A stretch of 64,000 nt of DNA from Planctomycetota bacterium (GTDB lineage Bacteria; Planctomycetota; SZUA-567; H5-PLA8). This document shows positions 1 through 51,755 of this stretch, one piece after another. The notes under the pieces are model-generated. The model searched no databases and had not been told where the DNA came from. It worked only from the letters and a program-made list of their open reading frames with translations. How positions within the stretch are numbered: the first letter of the stretch is position 1; each line of letters begins with the position of its first letter. Location of the stretch: positions 1 to 64,000 of the forward strand of contig JBBRPR010000031.1 of NCBI GenBank assembly GCA_038227875.1, written 5' to 3'. Position numbers and translations under genes: made by a program.

Positions 1-138
1 CTGGATTGTAAACCGCGTCTGTCCTGTAGACAAAGCGGTCAATACGAAGCGAGCCCCTTGACGAGGCCGCGAAAGGAAGGTACGTTTCGGTTTCGGCTAC
101 GGACGTTCAACCAATTTCAACAACGGATGGGACATCCG
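1..138 (-). mobile_element. possible terminal end of an insertion sequence (IS256-like terminus?) abutting the helicase gene
   Basis: The helicase frame has stops at 9-11 and 27-29. The minus strand starts GGATGTCCCATCCGTTGTTGAAATT, which from memory resembles some IS256-family termini (unverified). A leftward sigma70-like promoter is present: TTGTCT (33-28), 17 bp, TACAAT (10-5). Confidence 0.3.
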
Positions 139-146
139 CTACGATT

Positions 147-3100
147 ATGTCGATGGCTTTGCGGCTTAAGACTGCCGCCAAAAGCCACGCAATTTTGGAA
201 CGCGCTTTTTTGGTGGCGGGAGAGTTAGTTGAGTCGGCAATTCACCGGGGCAACCAACGGATTGATACGGGCTTTCATCGTGTAACGGCTTCGATCGCTT
301 TTCATCTCGGCGGATACGCGGCACGCGCCTATTCGATACTTCCCACTCATCCGGCAATCGATAACCTTGCGCCAATCGAAAAAGTTTTAGTAGACCTGCT
401 GCGCCGAAATCTTGATGAGATGCGGCAATCCTACCTTTCTTGGATTAGGAATGACCAAAACTCAGATACCAATATAGCGCGGAAACTTCAAGACGATAGC
501 GAGTTCAACGAAGATGATGCAATTCACTCAATTCTGACAACCTCGTTTATGCGAGGCATTGCGCTATTCGATCATGCTATTACCACTGGCGATGCCGACT
601 CGGCATCGAAAGCCAAATCGCAGCTTGCAAACACCGCACTTGCCGCCGCAGATATGCGGGCAGTTAGCCATTGGTGGACATCGACCCTAGCATCACACCT
701 AATCGATGAACTGTGGCAATTTAGCTTGTACGTCCAAATCCCGACCTTGCCACCTGGAGCCGATGGTTCCAATACTTGGCAAAGTCTTCGGCGAGACTAT
801 ATACAACGCTTGCGTGCAGCCAAGAGATGCGCAGTCGAGCTGTGGCCCTCGCAATGCGAAGCTGCAAAGCGTGCAGTCAAGGAGTTTGATGATTTACTAG
901 TAGCACTCCCGACGAGTGCTGGAAAGACGCGAATCGCTGAGTTATGCATTCTGCGAGCATTGGCGGCAGGGAAGCGCGCGGTATACATAACACCGTTACG
1001 GGCGCTTTCTGCACAGGTGGAGCGAGATCTTTCTCAGACATTCAGGCCGCTCGGGTTTTCGGTCACGGCTCTGTATGGTGCGGCGGGGATTGAGACGGTC
1101 GATGCAAAATCGTTGAAGGAGGGAAAAATTGTTGTTTCAACTCCTGAAAAGCTTGATTTCGCTCTACGAAATGATCCTACGATCATTAATGACGTCGGAC
1201 TCGTCGTACTAGATGAAGGGCATATGTTGGGGCCAAACGAGCGTGAGGTGCGTTACGAAGCGCTTGTACAGCGATTGTTGTTGCGAACTGACTCCTCAAT
1301 CCGAAGAATTGTTTGTTTATCTGCACTCTTTCCAACACCGGAAGAAATGAAGGATCTTGTTGCGTGGATTCGGCAAGATGAGCCCGGGGAACCAATTTAT
1401 TCACGATGGCGCCCGACACGCCAGCGATTCGGAGTACTCAGATGGGCGCGAAATGCGGCTCGGTTAGAAGTTAAAGTGGAGGAAGAAAGTCCCTTTGTAC
1501 CCAGATTTGTTGAGTCGTGCGTGCCACCGGCCGGGTCTAGAAGACGCAAGAACTTTCCGGCTGAAAAGAATGAACTGACCTTGGCAGCCGCATGGAAGTT
1601 TGTCGAGCAGCAAAAGGAAGTTTTGATTTACTGTTCGTTGCGCAAATCAGTTGAAACACTCGGAAGGTTGGCAATCAAATGCATCAAGCAGGGCCTATTG
1701 CCGCCCCTGCGACAAACATCTCAACAAATCAGAGACGCCGTTGCAGTGGGCACAGAGTGGCTTGGAGGTGATCATCCGGCGGTTCAGTGTCTGCCATACG
1801 GCATAGCGCTTCACCACGGGGGGCTGCCTAGAGCATATCTTAACGAGATCGAAAAGCTTCTTCGTACCCGGGACTGCCCGCTAGTAATCGCATCACCTAC
1901 TCTTGCGCAAGGACTTAATCTTGCGGCAAGCGTACTTATTGTTCCATCAATATGGCGTAATCAGGAAGTCATTCCAGCTTCAGAGTTCGCGAACGTTGCT
2001 GGGCGCGCCGGCCGAGCGTTCGTTGATTTAGAGGGTCTAGTTCTCCACATTGTTCATGAACCCACCCCTGGAAAGACTAACTGGGCAATAAAGACTTGGG
2101 AACAGTTAGTAAGCCGAGCTCGGGGACCTCGGGTCAGCAGCGGAATATTGTTGCTTGCAAACAATATATTTGAGCAAATTGCATCCGTGAGTAACGCGCC
2201 ATTTGATGAAGTCGTTAATTACATTACTGGGCACGGCGACGCGTGGAGCTACAACCCTATCCTTTCTGAGAAGGACATTTCGGAAGAAGACTGGGAGCGA
2301 GATATCGCTTCGCTTGATTCGGCTATTTTGGCTTTACTTGATCCATCTACTGTTGACTCGGAGCTTGACCAATCGCTGGCCAATGTACTTCGCGGTTCAC
2401 TATTTTCGAGACAGCTGCAGGAGAAGACGGCAGCAATACAAAACCTGATTCGCGCATTCCTAGCCGCACGCGCAAAGAAGATATGGTCGGAAACTAATCT
2501 CAGTCAGAGAAAAGGTTATTACGCTGCGGGAGTCGGACTGCGCGCCGGAAAGTTTTTGGATTCAAACTTTTCATCACTTCTTAGCATGTTGTTGCGCATT
2601 GAGGCCGGAATTGTTGCAAAAAACGTCGATGATACCTGCAATGCGGTTGTTGAGTTCGCGGAGCTAGTATTACAAATCTCGCCATTTCACCCGCCTGCCG
2701 GGCTGCCTGCTCATTGGCAGGGCGCTTTGCGGGCTTGGATTAAGGGAGAGCCCGCTGCCGACGTTATCAAAACATGTGGCGACGACGGGGTAGATTTTCT
2801 TCAAGATGCAATAGCGTATAGGTTGCCTTGGGCAATGGAAGCACTTCGCGTACATGCCTTAGCACTCGGCGATCTGAAGGCTGTAGGGATTCAAGGGTTA
2901 GCGGCGTTAGCGGTTGAATGCGGTAGCATTGATCGAAGCGTAATGACACTCTTGCGCAACGGCCTAAGTTCGCGCGAAGCTGCAATTAACGCTGTTTCGT
3001 CAACATCCGCGGCTTTTTTCGACACTATTGAGATGCTTGTTTGGTTAATGTCCGACGACGTTCGAAACAAGGCTGCGAACGATGACTGGCCTACGAAACA

Positions 3101-3416
3101 AAGTCGTCACGCGTGGAAGGAATTCTATGGAGGAGAGACAAGGGATCGATATCAAGAATGGACGCGCCGGTCCATACAGGTGCCTGTCGATTGGGCTGGT
3201 GGTCTTCCTGAAGTTGGCTCTGCTGTCGTAGTTGTTCCCGAACAAAAGGCTCAAGCATTAATTTTTACCCCTGACTTCTTGCCCTTAGGAAAACTAGCTT
3301 TTAAAGAAGAGCCGATCTGGGTGCAATTGGTCGAAGCACACGTCTCCGCCGATCCTAAGTTCATAACTATAGAGTTTTTTGGCAATGTTGATTCGTTTGC
3401 ACCCAAGTTCGCGTAA
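147..3416 (+). CDS. Ski2-like DEAD/DEAH-box SF2 helicase, Hachiman HamB-like; N-terminus possibly truncated
   Basis: Motifs LWPSQ (Q motif), ALPTSAGKT (Walker A), LDEGH (Walker B), LSA (III), HHGGL, SPTLAQGLN (V), NVAGRAGRA (VI). Long helical N- and C-terminal extensions. Lower GC than the rest of the window and next to an integrase. Confidence 0.8.
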   Translation: MSMALRLKTAAKSHAILERAFLVAGELVESAIHRGNQRIDTGFHRVTASIAFHLGGYAARAYSILPTHPAIDNLAPIEKVLVDLLRRNLDEMRQSYLSWIRNDQNSDTNIARKLQDDSEFNEDDAIHSILTTSFMRGIALFDHAITTGDADSASKAKSQLANTALAAADMRAVSHWWTSTLASHLIDELWQFSLYVQIPTLPPGADGSNTWQSLRRDYIQRLRAAKRCAVELWPSQCEAAKRAVKEFDDLLVALPTSAGKTRIAELCILRALAAGKRAVYITPLRALSAQVERDLSQTFRPLGFSVTALYGAAGIETVDAKSLKEGKIVVSTPEKLDFALRNDPTIINDVGLVVLDEGHMLGPNEREVRYEALVQRLLLRTDSSIRRIVCLSALFPTPEEMKDLVAWIRQDEPGEPIYSRWRPTRQRFGVLRWARNAARLEVKVEEESPFVPRFVESCVPPAGSRRRKNFPAEKNELTLAAAWKFVEQQKEVLIYCSLRKSVETLGRLAIKCIKQGLLPPLRQTSQQIRDAVAVGTEWLGGDHPAVQCLPYGIALHHGGLPRAYLNEIEKLLRTRDCPLVIASPTLAQGLNLAASVLIVPSIWRNQEVIPASEFANVAGRAGRAFVDLEGLVLHIVHEPTPGKTNWAIKTWEQLVSRARGPRVSSGILLLANNIFEQIASVSNAPFDEVVNYITGHGDAWSYNPILSEKDISEEDWERDIASLDSAILALLDPSTVDSELDQSLANVLRGSLFSRQLQEKTAAIQNLIRAFLAARAKKIWSETNLSQRKGYYAAGVGLRAGKFLDSNFSSLLSMLLRIEAGIVAKNVDDTCNAVVEFAELVLQISPFHPPAGLPAHWQGALRAWIKGEPAADVIKTCGDDGVDFLQDAIAYRLPWAMEALRVHALALGDLKAVGIQGLAALAVECGSIDRSVMTLLRNGLSSREAAINAVSSTSAAFFDTIEMLVWLMSDDVRNKAANDDWPTKQSRHAWKEFYGGETRDRYQEWTRRSIQVPVDWAGGLPEVGSAVVVVPEQKAQALIFTPDFLPLGKLAFKEEPIWVQLVEAHVSADPKFITIEFFGNVDSFAPKFA

Positions 3417-3446
3417 GACGGGCCGTCCTGGCGAGTCTGGCTGGCA

Positions 3447-4931
3447 TTACCACTGCAAAGGCCATTTTCCCGCTCCAACCGGCGCCATGTAATGACGCCT
3501 CACTATATCTGGAGAATTTCCCGACCATTGTGCTACTTGAATCTCAGTGCATCCGGAATGGCCCATGGCCGTTGCAGCGCAATGCCGCCACTCATCTGGC
3601 CCGTATGACCAGAACTCATCTTCGACCTTCGGCTTGGACTTGGATTTGGCCGCCTGCCAGATTTTCTTCCATTCCTTGTGCCAGTTGCTTGCGCTCTTCC
3701 ATCGGTCGTTGGTGATCGCGGCCGTATGACGAACGAGTCTAGGGAACACCCATTTGCAGCCAGATGGTAGCGTAGCGAGGTGATCCTTTAAGATGTCGAG
3801 GAGCAGAGTTCGCTCGATCGGCACATTTCTCTCGCGGCCGGTCTTCGTCCCGCTCAGATGAGCTTTGCCGGGCTTGACGCGTTTGCCGCTGGCGCGGGAA
3901 GTGACGCGCATGTAATTGCTATCCAGATAAAGATCATCAACTTTTAGCCAGGCCTGCTCGGACCATCTCGGACCCGCCAAAATCGCCGTCGCAACCCACG
4001 CCCGCCAGTAGAGCCATGGTTTCAGACCGTCGAAGAGCGCTGTAAGCTGTTCGTACCGCCGGATGGCAATGATGTGTTCGGCGTAACGCGCAACGCCGGC
4101 AACCTCCAAAGTTTTTTGCATGGGGTTCTCTGACAGATCGTAAAACTTGTACGCCCATGTCAGGAAGACAGAGATGTAGCGCTTGTACTTTGCTTTCGTC
4201 GTTGGCGACAGTGGATCCTTAGATTTCTTATCAGCGCGCTTCAACCCTGCAACCCAGTCGTTGACATGGCGCGCGGCGACATCGCCGATCAGCTTCGTGG
4301 CGCCAAAAAAGTCGCGAAAGTCATTTGCGATCCTGATTACCTGATCCGCGTCCGTTTCAGAATGACCGGCGGGATAGTCCTTCTCGAATTTCCTGGCGGC
4401 CTCTTCAACAGTTGTCTTGCAATGCTTGTTCAGCTTTCGCTGATACTCCCGAATCTGACGCTGATCTTCCTCGAGTTCCCTCTCGAGTTGGATAATCCGA
4501 CGATCCTTTGCCGCTTCATCACGGCGGCGCTGGTCTTCCTCTACCAACTCGACCTTCACATTGCGGATGAACTTGGGAGTAACCTCTCGATCATCTCTGA
4601 AATACGCTCGCGCCGTGCCGATTGTTTTTCCGGATATCTTGGTTTCATTCCTGAACTCGCGGCGCCTTCGAGGTTTGCCGTAAAACAGTTCGACTGCTCT
4701 GTCATGGAATCGCTCGACCAGTTCATGGTCAGAATCCAAGTTCCAAAGCGACGGCGTCTCCATCAGCGTCTTGAGATCGATGTAGATCTGCATCGCTTCG
4801 GTCTGATCGATTGTCTTCAGACTATTGGTTGTTCGCTTTCCGGTCTTCGGATGGACCCAGGTGGTGTACCGCGTCGGGTAGTCGCCCTGCGGAAAAGGTA
4901 TAACGATGTCGTCTTTTTTGCGCCCAGCCAT
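3447..4931 (-). CDS. tyrosine recombinase / phage-type integrase with extended N-terminus
   Basis: Catalytic motifs GPRWSEQ (Arg), KTGRERNVP (Lys), DEWRH (HxxR equivalent), WSGNS...RRHY (Tyr). Core-binding region with TTKAKYKRYISVFLTWA. Adjacent to a tRNA fragment. Confidence 0.9.
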   Translation of the reverse strand: MAGRKKDDIVIPFPQGDYPTRYTTWVHPKTGKRTTNSLKTIDQTEAMQIYIDLKTLMETPSLWNLDSDHELVERFHDRAVELFYGKPRRRREFRNETKISGKTIGTARAYFRDDREVTPKFIRNVKVELVEEDQRRRDEAAKDRRIIQLERELEEDQRQIREYQRKLNKHCKTTVEEAARKFEKDYPAGHSETDADQVIRIANDFRDFFGATKLIGDVAARHVNDWVAGLKRADKKSKDPLSPTTKAKYKRYISVFLTWAYKFYDLSENPMQKTLEVAGVARYAEHIIAIRRYEQLTALFDGLKPWLYWRAWVATAILAGPRWSEQAWLKVDDLYLDSNYMRVTSRASGKRVKPGKAHLSGTKTGRERNVPIERTLLLDILKDHLATLPSGCKWVFPRLVRHTAAITNDRWKSASNWHKEWKKIWQAAKSKSKPKVEDEFWSYGPDEWRHCAATAMGHSGCTEIQVAQWSGNSPDIVRRHYMAPVGAGKWPLQW

Positions 4932-4959
4932 AACCCCAAAGGTAGCCGATTTGATAGAT

Positions 4960-5140
4960 TTTGCATAGAGTTTTTTTGAGCGATTTGCATAGAGTCAGGA
5001 GGCCGAAAACGCCCGTTTTTCATAGGAGCACATATTTTCATAGGAGAACGGACGGTCGAATCGCACGCGAAATCCAGCATAGAGTAACGGATTATGAGTC
5101 CCCTGCTCTCACCGCTGAGCTATGGGCCCGTTTCATAGAG
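4960..5140 (+). repeat. cluster of short direct repeats, candidate integrase arm-type binding sites
   Basis: TTTGCATAGAGT at 4960 and 4984; TTTTCATAGGAG at 5017 and 5035; AGCATAGAGT at 5076; TTTCATAGAG at 5131. Confidence 0.65.
5089..5129 (-). pseudogene. 5' half of a tRNA with CAT anticodon (Ile2-like), cut just after the anticodon loop; att junction
   Basis: Minus strand GGGCCCA-TAGCTCAGCGGTGAGAGC-A-GGGGA-CTCATAA-TCC gives the acceptor 5' strand, D arm and anticodon loop. No T arm or acceptor 3' strand follows. Confidence 0.85.
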
Positions 5141-5154
5141 GGCAGGCTTTCGCG

Positions 5155-5182
5155 AATATAGTGTGGGGTTACTCGTTGTAAA
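5155..5182 (-). promoter_or_regulatory. sigma70-like promoter of the tRNA fragment, pointing toward the integrase
   Basis: Minus strand TTTACA-16 bp-TATATT, about 25 nt upstream of the tRNA 5' end. Confidence 0.55.
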
Positions 5183-5422
5183 CCTGCCTTTTGGGCCGCG
5201 CGCTGCTCGGATTCGCAGCGGTGTTGACGCTCCACCCCGCGCAGAATTGCCATGCGATGTGTGCTTTTAACCACGTAACGAATTCGTTTCCGGTCCTCTC
5301 AACCGATCACTTGGAAGTGTTCACGGAATTTCAGTAACCGTGTCTGACTTCGTCTTATACACTCCACGAGCCTAAACGTGTGCTTAGGTGGATTCGCAAC
5401 TTTTTGAGGAGGAGAAAAGAAC

Positions 5423-5953
5423 GTGGTTAGAAATACCGTTTTGGTTGCAGTGCTGTTGCTGGGAATCGGTTTGATGCAGCGTGAAGTTTTCGCGGCCGCG
5501 CCGAATGAAGTTCATGTGCCGAAGAGCGCCTGGGACAAGCAGGATCTGTCGAAGGCGAAGAAAGGCGATTTTGTCGAATATGAAATGCCGGCAATGCCCG
5601 GGGCCAAGAGCCGCCAGGAAATCGTGGACATCGGCGATCACACGATGACCTATGAAACGGCAATGACTGTCGGCGGCAACAAGCTCCCGGCCAGCCAGAC
5701 GAAGATGATCTATGACGCGGCCGATCCGGCGCCCAAGGATGAGAAGACCAAGCTGGAGACCAAGGAAGCGGCGGACAAGGTGACCGTGGCCAAGGGTACG
5801 TTCGATGCGACGCGGTACGAGTCCTACAAGGACGGCACACTGCTGAGCAAAGCCTGGGTCAGCAAGGAAATCCCGGTGACCGGCCTGGTCAAGGCGCAGG
5901 ATGGCGCGGGCAAGGACTCCATGGTGCTTTCCGATTTCGGACGCGGCAAGTAA
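5423..5953 (+). CDS. secreted hypothetical protein
   Basis: GAGGAG RBS and GTG start; signal peptide (VLVAVLLLGIGL...AAA); high GC3 codon usage. Confidence 0.8.
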   Translation: MVRNTVLVAVLLLGIGLMQREVFAAAPNEVHVPKSAWDKQDLSKAKKGDFVEYEMPAMPGAKSRQEIVDIGDHTMTYETAMTVGGNKLPASQTKMIYDAADPAPKDEKTKLETKEAADKVTVAKGTFDATRYESYKDGTLLSKAWVSKEIPVTGLVKAQDGAGKDSMVLSDFGRGK

Positions 5954-5982
5954 TCCGCATTAAAATATATCCACAGCCGTGA

Positions 5983-6020
5983 GCAGAACGGACCGGACGT
6001 GATCGGTCCGTTCTGCGTTT
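5983..6020. terminator. hairpin terminator between convergent genes
   Basis: GCAGAACGGACCG-N8-CGGTCCGTTCTGC followed by GTTTT. Confidence 0.7.
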
Positions 6021-9207
<3,187 letters not shown>

Positions 9208-9233
<26 letters not shown>

Positions 9234-10455
9234 GGTCGGACAGCGCCTGCAGATCGTTCCAATCGAAGCTCACAACCTTTCCGTCCTTCACCACCGTCGG
9301 CCAGATTTCGTGGCTGGCCTGATGTTCACTCCCACTGAGATGCAATTTGGTATCGAAGCCAAGATCGAACTCGCCCAGGTTTTCAAACGCGGTGACGAGG
9401 CTTTCGGAATCGACGGCCTTGGCCTGTTCGAGCGCCAGGCACAGCATGCGGCCGACAAGATAGCCTTCAAACGAGACGTAACCCGGAGTGGCCTCTGAAT
9501 TCAGGGCATGAATCGCGCTCTGATAGCGTTTGGAGACGGCTGAATCTGCAACAAAGCTGGGGACGACCTGCGTGATAATGGTGTCCTCACTATTCTTGCC
9601 TGCTTCGGCGACCAGATCATTGGCGCCGACGAACGATACGGCCAGGAAGAGCGGCCAATAATTGTTGGCGTGCGCCTGCTTCAATAATTCGCCGCACGGT
9701 TTGTACGTGCCGACCATAATCACGGCCTTGGGCTGAATTTCCGTCAGCAACAGCTGCGAAAGTCCGCGACGGATGGCCACCGTGTTGCGTTCGTAGCCGA
9801 CCTGCACGATCTTCGACTCATCGGTCAGACCGTGGCGCTTGAGCGCTTCAAGGCCGCCCTTGAAGCCGGCCTCGCCGTACGCGTCGCGCTGGGTGAAGAA
9901 GCCGATCTCCTCAGGCTTCAGATGCAGCTTGTCGATCAACGCATCGACCATCGCGCCGGTTTCTTCCGCATACGACGCTCGAAAATTGATGATGTAACGG
10001 TCCGGCGGCGTTTTGCGCAGCAGCCCCGCCCCGGTGAAGGCGCCGACCAGCGGCGTGTGGCCTTCGTTGACAATCGGCACGGCGGCGACAGCCGTCGGTG
10101 TGCCGACGTTTCCGGTTACGGCGAGGACGTGATTTTCCGAAATCAACTTTCTGACATTGGTCGCGGCGCGCAGCGGTTCATAGCCATCGTCGAGGGCGAT
10201 CAAATGAAGCTTCCGTCCGGCGATCCCGCCATTGCGGTTGACTTCTTCGAGCGCCGCTTCGACGCCGAAGCGCATCTTCAATCCAATCTCCTGCGTCGGT
10301 CCGGTGAGCGCCGTCGACATGCCCAGCTGAATATCCATCGTGTCGGGCTTGTCCGCCGCGGGGAGCACCGTACAGCAAACTACCCCCACGAAACAAACGA
10401 TCCATCGGGCAATATGCAATCGAACAGGTTCAATAGTGTGGTGCGGTCGTTCCAT
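9208..10455 (-). CDS. periplasmic substrate-binding protein, LivJ/branched-chain amino acid-binding family; start uncertain (ORF open to 10530)
   Basis: [44 protein letters not shown]; hydrophobic signal segment; its stop overlaps the kinase start. Confidence 0.88.
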
Positions 10456-10565
10456 CTTAGACCCAAACCTCCAATACCCGTAAGCCAACCGAACCATGGG
10501 AACAAGCAAATTGCGGACATATTCGAGCATTTCGGCAAATTATCCCGACCCACCTGAGCAGACGT

Positions 10566-12143
10566 ATGGCGCGAAGCTTGCGCAACAAAGCGTGTCTCAT
10601 TATAGGGAATTCGTGTATGGCATCTTCCAATCCACTATTAAGAACCTGGCGGGCAGTCGTCGCGCTCAACTCCGTTCGAAAGGTCCGGAAGTCCGGTTCG
10701 GCCTCCTCTACCGCGCGTGAACGGTCGCGGAAGCATCTCGCCACCCAACTGGGACAGCTCAAGGGCTTATTTCAAAAGCTGGGGCAGGTGGCAGAATCCG
10801 CGTCTACGGACGACGCGATGTGCGACGTGGTCAATCGCGGAGCTGCGATCCCCGCCACACGCGTGCTTTCGATCCTGAAGCTGGCCTGGCGCCGCGAGCC
10901 TGAACGCGTGCTGGCCGAGATCGATCCACAGGGTCTGGCGGCGTCCCTGGGACAGGTTCACCGCGCCCGCTTGCGCAATGGCGCAGACGTTGCAATCAAG
11001 GTTCAATTCCCCTGTATTCGCGAGGCGCTGACTCAGGATCTCTCGCTGGCGCACACGTCCTTTCAAGCGGCGAAAATGTTCGGCCTGAAATTCGACACCG
11101 CCGAATACGACAGCGCGCTTTCCGACTCGCTGTTGGGAGAACTGGACTACCTCGCCGAAGCGGCCGCTCAAAACATTTACGCTCGGGACGTCCGCGCCAG
11201 TTCGCAACCGGTGGTGGTGCCGCGCGTCGTGGCGGAACTCTCCGGTCCGACGGTGCTCGTCACTCAATGGCAGAGCGGCGTGACGATCGGTGAAGCGGCG
11301 CGAATCTGGAGCCCCGAGGATCGCGCCGAGGCCGGACGCGTAATGCTGACGCATGTGCTGACGCAGCTCCTGCGTTTCGGCACGGTTCACGGCGATCTGC
11401 ACACGGGAAACTTTGCATTCCGGCGCGGGCCAGCGGGAATTGAATTGGTGCTCTACGATTTTGGTTCCGTCTGCCGTCTGGAAGAACAAGAACAAAGCGC
11501 TCTGCAGGATTTGCTTCTTAATGTTTCACGGCATCAATCCGACCCGTTGGACACCTTCTTGAATTTTGGATTTCGTCGTGAGTTCCTTTTGCCGATCGCG
11601 TCGCGCTGCAATGCATTTTGCGACTTACTACTCGAACCGTTCACAAAACCGGGACGCTTCGATGTCAATGCCTGGAATCTTTCCGCGCGGGTCGGCGCGG
11701 TCCTCGGCGATGACCGCTGGAATTTCCGCGCTGCCGCGCCCGCGCGCTTTCTATTGTTGATGCGGGTTTTTCACGGCGTCACCCACGCCCTGCGGCGACT
11801 CCGCGCCGCCGTCGACTGGCAGGCGTGCTTGGCGCAGGCCAGCATCTCCGCGGGTGTAACGCCGACAGTCTCGCTGCCCTTGTCCATCTGCGATCCGCTC
11901 GTTGCAACGGCGCTGGTGATTCAGGTGGTTCAGGACGGGGAGACTCGCGTGAAGCTCACGCTGGAGGCCTCGATGCTCGCCCAGACCGACGCGTGGCTGT
12001 CGGAGGAACTTGAAGCGCGATTGGTCCATCGCGGCATCGATGCGCGGGAGATCGCGAGCAAAGCCATCAGGCAGGGATATCGAAAAGGCGTGCTGTTTTC
12101 GTCGAGCGACGCAGAGAACACGATCTCGGTCAGGCTGGAGTGA
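10566..12143 (+). CDS. ABC1/UbiB (AarF) family atypical kinase
   Basis: KGLFQKLGQ, AASLGQVHRA, VAIKVQ, ELDYLAEA, HGDLHTGN, LYDFG. Confidence 0.88.
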   Translation: MARSLRNKACLIIGNSCMASSNPLLRTWRAVVALNSVRKVRKSGSASSTARERSRKHLATQLGQLKGLFQKLGQVAESASTDDAMCDVVNRGAAIPATRVLSILKLAWRREPERVLAEIDPQGLAASLGQVHRARLRNGADVAIKVQFPCIREALTQDLSLAHTSFQAAKMFGLKFDTAEYDSALSDSLLGELDYLAEAAAQNIYARDVRASSQPVVVPRVVAELSGPTVLVTQWQSGVTIGEAARIWSPEDRAEAGRVMLTHVLTQLLRFGTVHGDLHTGNFAFRRGPAGIELVLYDFGSVCRLEEQEQSALQDLLLNVSRHQSDPLDTFLNFGFRREFLLPIASRCNAFCDLLLEPFTKPGRFDVNAWNLSARVGAVLGDDRWNFRAAAPARFLLLMRVFHGVTHALRRLRAAVDWQACLAQASISAGVTPTVSLPLSICDPLVATALVIQVVQDGETRVKLTLEASMLAQTDAWLSEELEARLVHRGIDAREIASKAIRQGYRKGVLFSSSDAENTISVRLE

Positions 12144-51684: not shown

Positions 51685-51755
51685 TTCCGGGTGGTGTAAC
51701 GGTAACACTAGGGATTTTGGTTCCCTCATTCCAGGTTCGAATCCTGGCCCGGAAA
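51685..51755 (+). tRNA. tRNA-Gln (TTG), CCA not encoded
   Basis: Acceptor TTCCGGG/CCCGGAA; anticodon arm AGGGA-TTTTGGT-TCCCT; T arm CCAGG-TTCGAAT-CCTGG; possible promoter TTGAAG-17-TAATGT at 51628-51656. Confidence 0.95.

Follow-up and report, generated by a model that had tools for sequence, protein, structure and literature searches.

The stretch of DNA analysed here, hereafter the window, comprises the first 64 kb of contig C31 (JBBRPR010000031.1) of a metagenome-assembled genome from a Planctomycetota bacterium (GCA_038227875.1, genome code G000; 9.34 Mb, 176 contigs, 88% complete, 4% contamination). Close to its left end lies one junction of an integrative island, at which a tyrosine integrase gene, int, stands next to only the 5' part of a transfer RNA (tRNA) gene of the tRNA-Ile2(CAU) kind; what appears to be the other end of the same island, together with a complete but intron-bearing copy of that tRNA gene, was found on contig C35. 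The int gene (3447..4931, minus strand) encodes 494 aa and is full length relative to its homologues. Fifty of these were found besides the protein itself, nearly all with a precomputed PF00589 assignment and several from sources named Planctomycetota; one of them, P0002, is 79% identical to int. The int protein reaches 26.6 bits against PF00589 over aa 309-470, where the cut-off is 27.1, and in an alignment of 38 sequences including int (A1) the invariant columns include R322, K363, R449 and Y481.

Upstream of int, on the same strand, a sigma-70-like promoter (TTTACA-16-TATATT; 10 of 12 matches, shuffle mean 0.4) is located at 5182-5155, and this is the only such site that a scan returned within 4800-5400. 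It is followed by nt 1-41 of the tRNA (5129..5089, minus strand), reading GGGCCCATAGCTCAGCGGTGAGAGCAGGGGACTCATAATCC, which comprise the acceptor strand, the D arm and the 5' strand of the anticodon stem with its CUCAUAA loop, plus 3 nt from the stem's 3' strand. Neither a T arm nor the 3' strand of the acceptor stem is found after nt 41, where the sequence continues as GTTACTCTATG..., and the ATG of int is reached 158 nt further on. A first-pass annotation of the window had described this arrangement of promoter, stub without T arm or 3' acceptor strand, and integrase start codon about 160 nt later, and all of it holds up in the scan and in direct reading. The stub received no ARAGORN call, and a search of window 1-12000 gave no Rfam match at E<=1; the sole intact tRNA that ARAGORN reports in the window is tRNA-Gln(UUG) at 51685-51755. 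The string CTCATAATCC has a single occurrence in the window, where 0.03 would be expected by chance. Since no terminator-like site was found by scanning between 5400 and 4800, read-through from the host tRNA promoter, via the stub, into the predicted int is possible and seems plausible.

The end of the stub forms a 14-bp common core, GGGACTCATAATCC (5089..5102, minus strand; tRNA nt 28-41), which is a direct repeat of C35:83700..83687. Between this core and int lies the integrase-proximal arm P' (4932..5088, minus strand), in which three copies of ACTCTATG (5078-5085, 4988-4995 and 4964-4971) and two of CTCCTATGAAAA (5035-5046 and 5017-5028) are present. An extra CTCTATG copy (5134-5140) precedes tRNA nt 1 by 5 nt, on what is supposed to be the host side of attL; it may be due to chance or be the trace of an earlier island.

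The missing 3' half, which the first-pass annotation had proposed to look for further along the same contig, is present on C35 instead. At 83700..83655 (minus strand) nt 28-73 of the tRNA are found, with neither an insert nor CCA, at what would be attR. Here the core is preceded not by tRNA nt 1-27, but by GAGAATC and arm repeats, namely three copies of ACTCTATG and one inverted copy. Identity between the two junctions runs from G28 to C41, and these 14 bp are all that the stub on C31 (nt 1-41) has in common with the one on C35 (nt 28-73). The overlap has every appearance of the mark left by a site-specific insertion into the anticodon stem-loop, with GGGACTCATAATCC as the putative crossover region. 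The attL side lacks nt 42-73, the attR side lacks nt 1-27, and the core that they share is too short to rebuild a functional tRNA. The target gene is thus truly split, and the intact tRNA that a classical island regenerates at one of its junctions is absent.

Several observations tie the two junctions together. With the whole gene as BLAST query, tRNA pieces were found at only three places in the assembly: the intron-bearing gene itself (C35:83839-84169), C35:83655-83694, and C31:5097-5129, which matches nt 1-33 of that gene at 100%. In an assembly-wide exact search, the first 20 nt of the stub have a second exact copy on C35, and CTCATAATCC is found at six places overall. Of the 49 copies of the ACTCTATG motif in 9.3 Mb, three stand together on one strand inside 160 nt at two places only, on C31 (4964/4988/5078) and on C35 (83729/83740/83753; cluster 83729-83760). 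Reading C31 downward from 5129, and then C35 downward to 83655, gives the order 5' stub, island, 3' stub. Because of this fitting orientation, the identical core, the presence of exactly one stub of each kind and the shared ACTCTATG clusters, we infer that the C31 and C35 junctions are the two ends of one island. The first ~140 nt of C31 recur at 16 other contig ends and the last ~141 nt of C35 at four others; these two repeats differ, so that the colinearity of the junctions is deduced from the features above, and no overlap joining the start of C31 to the end of C35 was found. An 18-mer from the arm repeats had no match in viral contigs, and its five loci in genome contigs, from unrelated phyla and with no core nearby, were taken as chance.

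Could the junction instead be a chimeric join, at about 5089, of a tRNA gene with unrelated DNA? The genome is fragmented, metagenome-assembled and contaminated to the extent given above, and short-word assemblies break at 5100-5118 because the 5' exon of 33 nt is present in two copies, both of which would favour such an artefact. Nevertheless, we consider it very improbable. The probable source run has been assembled a second time, and a 3003-nt contig of that assembly covers window 3000-5118 with 0 differences and crosses 5089 by 29-30 nt; it derives from the same data as G000 with a different assembler, and hence provides no independent support. Furthermore, C35 provides the expected partner, whose core and arm repeats are the same, and the partner module is also found in a second sample (L169, see below). 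The misassembly at about 5089 that the first-pass annotation had named as a possible undoing of its reading is therefore not apparent, and neither is the lack of a 3' half elsewhere that it had named alongside. The loose contig ends at 5089 in run assemblies are intact tRNA genes of other organisms. The exact 22-nt attL junction has no match in metagenome contigs. Pieces from run X4 cover parts of 5142-5371 and a repeat near 6205-6273, and nothing else. In runs X2 and X3, which belong to another study, contigs with a depth of ~2 carry the host flank near-unchanged (0-1 differences in 151-175 nt; window 5298-6223) and an integrase N-terminal region that is 87% identical (19 of 151 positions differ; window 4843-4993). 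Judged from these low-depth contigs, a strain of the same species may exist with a diverged variant of the island.

About 145 nt inside the far junction, C35 carries a complete tRNA-Ile2 gene with an insert (84162..83844, minus strand, including CCA). Its nt 1-33 (5' exon) are located at 84162-84130, the 243-nt insert at 84129-83887, between U33 and C34, and nt 34-73 (3' exon) at 83886-83847, followed by CCA. Because the arm repeats stand between this gene and the far core, the gene lies on the island side and appears to be borne by the element. Its exons are identical to the host halves (33/33 and 40/40), and the insert splits the 14-bp core into GGGACT and CATAATCC (6 + 8). When joined, the exons give a 73-nt cloverleaf sequence corresponding to the intronless genes of relatives; among the 60 genomes used as relatives for BLAST comparisons, 14 have such a gene, 91-98% identical in the matched parts, and none has a match to the insert. 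The first-pass annotation had offered as an alternative that the element truly disrupts the tRNA; both junctions do hold split halves, and the complete gene that would compensate lay outside the window. The genome-wide census of CAT tRNAs that it had called for was made with ARAGORN and yields two others (C25 and C112), both of different sequence.

That the split tRNA belongs to the lysidine-dependent Ile2 type is suggested by three lines of evidence. For the 3' exon, the best hit in Escherichia coli is a gene annotated as tRNA-Ile whose anticodon is CAT (86-88% over 43 nt); the genome encodes TilS (TIGR02432, 160.6 bits versus a cut-off of 93.6); and the tRNA is not initiator-like, as it has G1 opposite U72 and an A31-U39 pair. 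We accordingly call it tRNA-Ile2-like. The spare gene, for which a candidate promoter TTGAGC-17-TACAAG is conserved in L169, would then supply the working tRNA-Ile2 of the cell. Since tRNA finders miss both the stubs and the intron-bearing gene, genomes such as G000 appear to have no tRNA-Ile2 at all. Elsewhere in the assembly, C25:15917-21842 holds 30 tRNA genes of unusual sequence on one strand within 6 kb, among them tRNA-Ile(UAU), tRNA-Ile(GAU) and one CAU tRNA; this resembles a mobile tRNA array and could alter the cell's need for tRNA-Ile2. ARAGORN further reports a CUA tRNA (labelled Pyl) at C67:21469-21544 and UCA tRNAs (labelled SeC) at C13:840-935 and C47:42458-42548. No initiator tRNA was found in the assembly.

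The insert itself has the hallmarks of a group I intron. In its minimum-energy fold, exon GGACU and the first intron U pair with GGGUCC, placing U33 in a G.U pair, and its 3' end reads ...CTTCCTG, with a terminal G directly before CATAATCC. The Rfam model RF00028 (Intron_gpI) aligns to it over P3-P7 (model positions 48-158) with 22.9 bits, below the gathering score of 50, and an E-value of 0.0091 in a 4.3-kb search. A degenerate pattern, consisting of a G directly before CATAA plus a T arm, gave at least 120 loci in genome contigs, and in 58 of these the exons could be delimited on both sides by script. These 58 are mostly initiator tRNAs with an intron after U33, the classical fMet.2Ug type, but at least eight have the GGGCC.../CATAATC exons seen in G000, including a Roseimaritima and a Phycisphaerae metagenome-assembled genome and several Burkholderiales and Accumulibacter records. 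When the 58 introns were made into a profile, with G000 left out, it gave a single nhmmer match in the whole assembly, at C35:84069-83924 (E 6e-14). In an alignment of 18 sequences, 51 consensus pairs were obtained, 30 of them with compensatory changes, and the G000 row conforms; the consensus pairs comprise the anticodon stem across the intron and helices at the positions of P3, P4, P5, P6, P8 and P9, with covariation in support of P3, P4, P6, P8 and P9, and the intron family aligns at GGGTT/GGGC. With a U-1 wobble pair in P1, a terminal G and a conserved P3-P8 core, the 243-nt insert is, as far as its sequence can tell, a group I intron of the bacterial tRNA type (IC3-like), and it would be expected to self-splice.

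A 20-mer from the intron was matched twice in metagenome contigs. One match (L168) is a chance occurrence in unrelated DNA, with no tRNA and no core. The other (L169) belongs to a second island that carries, in order, a candidate promoter, an intron-bearing tRNA-Ile2 gene, a spacer, three copies of ACTCTATG plus an inverted copy, the core and the 3' part. Compared with the far-end module of G000 it is 88.6% identical over 554 nt, and this identity is distributed unevenly: from left to right, 31 of 48 aligned positions are identical in the upstream region, 33/33 in the 5' exon, 233/243 in the intron, 40/40 in the 3' exon, 44/83 in the spacer, 56/61 in the arm repeats, 46/46 in the core plus 3' part and 8/19 downstream. 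The L169 intron also contains two double changes that preserve pairing, CUG..CAG to CCG..CGG and G-C to A-U in the P6 hairpin. Because exons, intron, arm repeats and core are retained at 92-100% whereas the spacers have drifted to 53-65%, selection appears to act on exons, intron, arm sites and core jointly, as one block at a mobile element's end. The 96% identity of the two introns and their paired changes, next to diverging spacers, lend indirect support to the predicted splicing. To the left of the L169 module lie another tyrosine recombinase and a DUF3102 protein, and ~1.3 kb to its right a LacI-type binding protein.

These data also bear on the question of whether one island is involved at all. 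The stubs on C31 and C35 could stem from different integrations or from a rearrangement, in which case the intron-bearing tRNA would be a host gene of the C35 locus. It is true that the two contigs remain unjoined and end in different repeats, that tandem or multiple islands do occur at this tRNA in relatives (G008:C1, see below), and that the host flanks show no synteny by tblastx with the 3-kb loci of relatives, where no empty site could be demonstrated. We nonetheless regard two separate events as quite unlikely. There is exactly one 5' and one 3' stub; they agree in core, strand logic and rare arm repeat, and the arm repeats between intron-bearing gene and core place that gene on the island side. 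Moreover, the intron is found in 0/60 relatives, 14 of which have the intronless gene; a neighbouring open reading frame (ORF) of 560 aa on C35 is likewise absent from 60/60; and in L169 the gene is flanked on the left by the different recombinase and DUF3102 protein just mentioned.

How unusual the truncated tRNA is became clear from the integrase family. Family loci elsewhere were gathered with alignment A1, the int sequence alone having retrieved no related loci. A complete tRNA lies within a few hundred nt of the integrase gene in nine of the 14 family loci in other genomes, on the same strand in four (L026, L029, L030 and L034) and divergently in five (L031, L033, L035, L036 and L043). 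Within G000, all five other full-length paralogues lie beside complete tRNAs, on the same strand on C88, C36 and C73 and divergently on C59 and C11. The window element is the only one found with its integrase beside a truncated tRNA.

The most informative of these loci is G008:C1:90020-154930 (L022-L025), where two family islands stand in tandem at the same tRNA-Ile2 with one rebuilt tRNA between them; L026 overlaps this stretch and is no independent example. Element 1 has the displaced host 5' half plus promoter at 90020, the rebuilt tRNA at 124047-124119 and a divergent integrase at 122395-123867, and its far end consists of arm repeats (arm motif CTTATAACG), upstream DNA of its own and a 5' half. 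The 3' part is supplied by element 2, whose integrase (124289-125740) lies on the same strand, whose displaced 3' part is found at 154889 and whose arm motif is CGTAATGCA. The first-pass annotation had proposed for the window element that it brings its own promoter and 5' half to the far junction, where the tRNA would be rebuilt by fusion to the host 3' half. This reversed geometry is real in the integrase family, as element 1 shows and as the divergent arrangement at L031, L033, L035, L036, L043, C59 and C11 suggests, but it does not exist in the window element. At C35:83700 it is GAGAATC and arm repeats, not tRNA nt 1-27, that abut the core, ARAGORN calls no tRNA at the far junction, and Rfam gives only a partial tRNA match below threshold (23.7 bits, model positions 7-64). 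The proposal is thus refuted for this island, and we assign it a negligible probability.

Some further loci of the family deserve mention. A junction with only a 5' half on G016:C923 has no integrase within 4.6 kb, and was interpreted as an island of reversed geometry seen at its far end rather than as a second case of the present type. L028 and L032 are neighbouring family integrases on one contig, and for L028 no clear attL was found. L027 shows arm repeats, a 3' tRNA part, again arm repeats, and then int, an order suggestive of a tandem junction or of an attP that has not integrated. Many members have a motif of the type TTTCATAGG / CCTATGAAA between tRNA and int (L027:9800-10000, C88, C36, L029, L032, L033 and L169:6280-6300); its form in the window is CTCCTATGAAAA at 5035-5046 and 5017-5028.

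Taken together, we favour a reading in which the island practises tRNA-dependent integration, as some mycobacteriophages do, with an intron hiding the attachment core in the rescue gene, and we put its probability at roughly 60%. The integrase would recombine GGGACTCATAATCC, the short core of attP, with the anticodon stem-loop in an intronless host tRNA-Ile2(CAU) gene. The attP would lack, by loss or from its origin, the tRNA 3' part that same-strand relatives carry, its 14-bp core lying between two arms; with no tRNA half next to the core, integration would leave the gene split, with promoter and nt 1-41 at attL beside int and nt 28-73 at attR. Compensation would come from the island's own complete tRNA-Ile2 gene near attR, whose spliced product would be the same tRNA as the target. 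In this gene the intron divides the core 6 + 8 in the DNA, to be reunited in the RNA only, such that the rescue gene would offer no attB to its own integrase. If the intron were missing, an attB and an attP would lie in direct orientation ~190 bp apart on the island. The rescue gene would likewise be closed to other islands using the same site, and int would be downstream of a co-oriented tRNA gene in both the integrated and the circular form. The position of the intron would thus matter for masking. Whether the intron indeed serves as a mask of the attachment site instead of being a passenger, and at the same time leaves no intact, intronless hot-spot tRNA for rival islands, is a more tentative matter, to which we give somewhat less than even odds.

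Conversely, the island may be a decayed relic, in which a deletion at attL removed the usual 3' half, the element is trapped, the intron-bearing tRNA is cargo and the position of its intron a coincidence. Same-strand relatives do keep a complete tRNA by int (C88, C36, C73; L026, L029, L030, L034), the island is interrupted by at least two insertion sequence (IS)-type repeats, and the helicase gene hamB next to one of them lacks the first 62 positions of its profile. Furthermore, introns between U33 and C34 of CAU tRNAs are widespread with no island nearby (the at least 120 loci above), and a second CTCATAA was found nearby in 0/22 Ile2-like loci checked. On the other hand, such a deletion would have to start precisely at the end of the 14-bp repeat, and the int ORF is intact, with all invariant columns of A1 present, which is so by definition since A1 includes int. 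An intronless spare gene with target-identical exons beside attP would moreover be an attB in cis, and the module is kept at 92-100% in the diverged L169 island, with spacers at 53-65%, which speaks for a maintained function and not for an accident in one genome. We therefore hold the relic to be unlikely.

We must however take into account a number of points that weigh against tRNA-dependent integration with a hidden core. That attL has no 3' half could result from a subsequent deletion and not from design, and the interruption of the island by at least two IS-type repeats suggests age, so that it may no longer move. The island is not closed, as the start of C31 and the end of C35 lie in different multicopy repeats, and neither attB nor attP forms were seen among the run contigs, which cannot reveal rare forms. 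Rfam support for a group I intron is weak, its score falling below the gathering threshold, and over the whole genome RF00028 finds nothing at E<=0.001, the model being weak on these introns. The region upstream of the spare tRNA gave no consensus promoter. Lastly, dependence of the cell on that gene may be weak, given that the tRNA-Ile(UAU) in the 30-gene array of C25 might read AUA, and with a completeness of 88% a further copy of tRNA-Ile2 could be absent from the assembly.

Genes for tRNAs are the commonest landing sites of genomic islands, and the textbook rule is that an island repairs the gene it cuts. The present locus shares with classical tRNA islands, as outlined for Islander (PMC4383910), a tRNA target, a tyrosine integrase beside the tRNA and direct-repeat ends. 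According to the same source, such islands restore the 3' part, and the displaced fragment marks the far end (PMC4383910). Close relatives of int follow this classical mode, namely element 2 of G008:C1 and the elements on C88, C36 and C73. By contrast, the window element has a whole tRNA at neither junction, and its repeat measures 14 bp, where 30-45 bp is given as typical in the introduction of PMC10865867.

A closer parallel is the tRNA-dependent lysogeny reported in 2024 for actinobacteriophages such as Fionnbharth, where the core is short, the tRNA is not rebuilt and the phage brings a tRNA of matching isotype (Guerrero-Bustamante & Hatfull, mBio 2024, PMC10865867). The features of this mode are present here in the form of an attB in a tRNA gene, a short core and an element-borne tRNA, the recombination itself being predicted. 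Like Fionnbharth, the island has a tyrosine integrase, an attB inside the host tRNA gene and arm-type sites flanking the core; the core is about 10 bp in Fionnbharth versus 14 bp here, and no functional tRNA is rebuilt in either (PMC10865867). Unlike Fionnbharth, it shows no phage genes in the 7.7 kb that can be seen, its cargo is a Hachiman helicase and its host belongs to the Planctomycetota; the spare tRNA is located beside attP, with a group I intron inside the core. That tRNA is exon-identical to the target, whereas the one of Fionnbharth is described there as not closely related to the host's (PMC10865867). In that paper the word 'intron' appears once, in the title of a reference.

Group I (IC3) introns that interrupt bacterial tRNAs within the anticodon loop are known in the classical types fMet.2Ug and Ile2.5Ug, the latter being the tRNA-Ile2 intron of Azoarcus, inserted after position 36 (Williams 2020 preprint, 10.1101/2020.01.27.920355, and PMC3984707). 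The intron of the spare gene resembles this group in having U-1 in a G.U pair, a terminal G and a P3-P8 core, and it is homologous to at least 58 introns. Its insertion point, after U33, is that of fMet.2Ug, and unlike the classical Ile2 intron at position 5 it occupies position 2 of a tRNA-Ile2; an Ile2.2Ug type may already be among the 21 types of the preprint (10.1101/2020.01.27.920355). What sets it apart from other IC3 tRNA introns is that its host gene lies on an integrative island, beside the attachment site. Randau and Soll proposed that disrupted archaeal tRNA genes, either intron-bearing or split, are maintained because they protect against integrating elements (cited in PMC4390854). 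As in their proposal, the intron here interrupts the sequence that the integrase would need; theirs concerns archaeal, protein-spliced introns in host genes, the present case a predicted bacterial self-splicing intron in the rescue gene of an element (PMC4390854). Among the literature titles and abstracts examined, none described a tRNA that is carried by an island or a phage and interrupted by a group I intron at its attachment core.

The locus is thus best filed as a variant of tRNA-dependent integration in which a group I intron interrupts the rescue tRNA at its attachment core. It would extend this exception to a defence island with hamB that does not look like a phage, and to a distant bacterial lineage, and it adds a new ingredient in a rescue tRNA that is exon-identical to the target and differs from the attachment site only by an intron in the core. 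If the masking reading is true, this would be the first natural case of a bacterial self-splicing intron shielding a mobile element from site-specific recombination, and a directly testable case of introns protecting tRNA genes from integrases. The benefit of bacterial tRNA introns has long been unclear. If the placement is functional, it would give these introns a concrete role, render the shield hypothesis testable with one integrase and two targets, and provide a design principle for integration vectors that bring their own copy of the target gene.

The visible part of the island amounts to 5.1 + 2.6 kb and carries int, hamB and the 560-aa ORF. The hamB gene (147..3416, plus strand), convergent with int, encodes a Hachiman-type helicase HamB of 1089 aa (PADLOC PDLC00174, 1270.4 bits), which covers profile positions 63-1160 of 1163 and contains the Pfam domains DEAD, ResIII and Helicase_C. 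It starts right after the contig-end repeat, and no hamA is visible; the Hachiman system may have been broken by an IS. That repeat, at window 1..140, marks a contig break, behind which the remainder of the island is hidden: the first 137-141 nt match the 16 other contig ends at 98.3-100%, and the matches fall into two variants, at 100% and at about 98.5%. It is probably an insertion sequence, and the two variants may be the long terminal inverted repeats of a single IS. The 560-aa ORF beside the spare gene could be assigned to no family. Judging by hamB and by the lack of this ORF in relatives, the visible genes look accessory. A partial paralogue of the ORF, 44% identical, is found at C116:142-681 and 2182-2555, beside the tmRNA gene, and two small ORFs beside the intron-bearing tRNA of L169 have their best matches on C116 as well, which may be another island, at ssrA, with common cargo.

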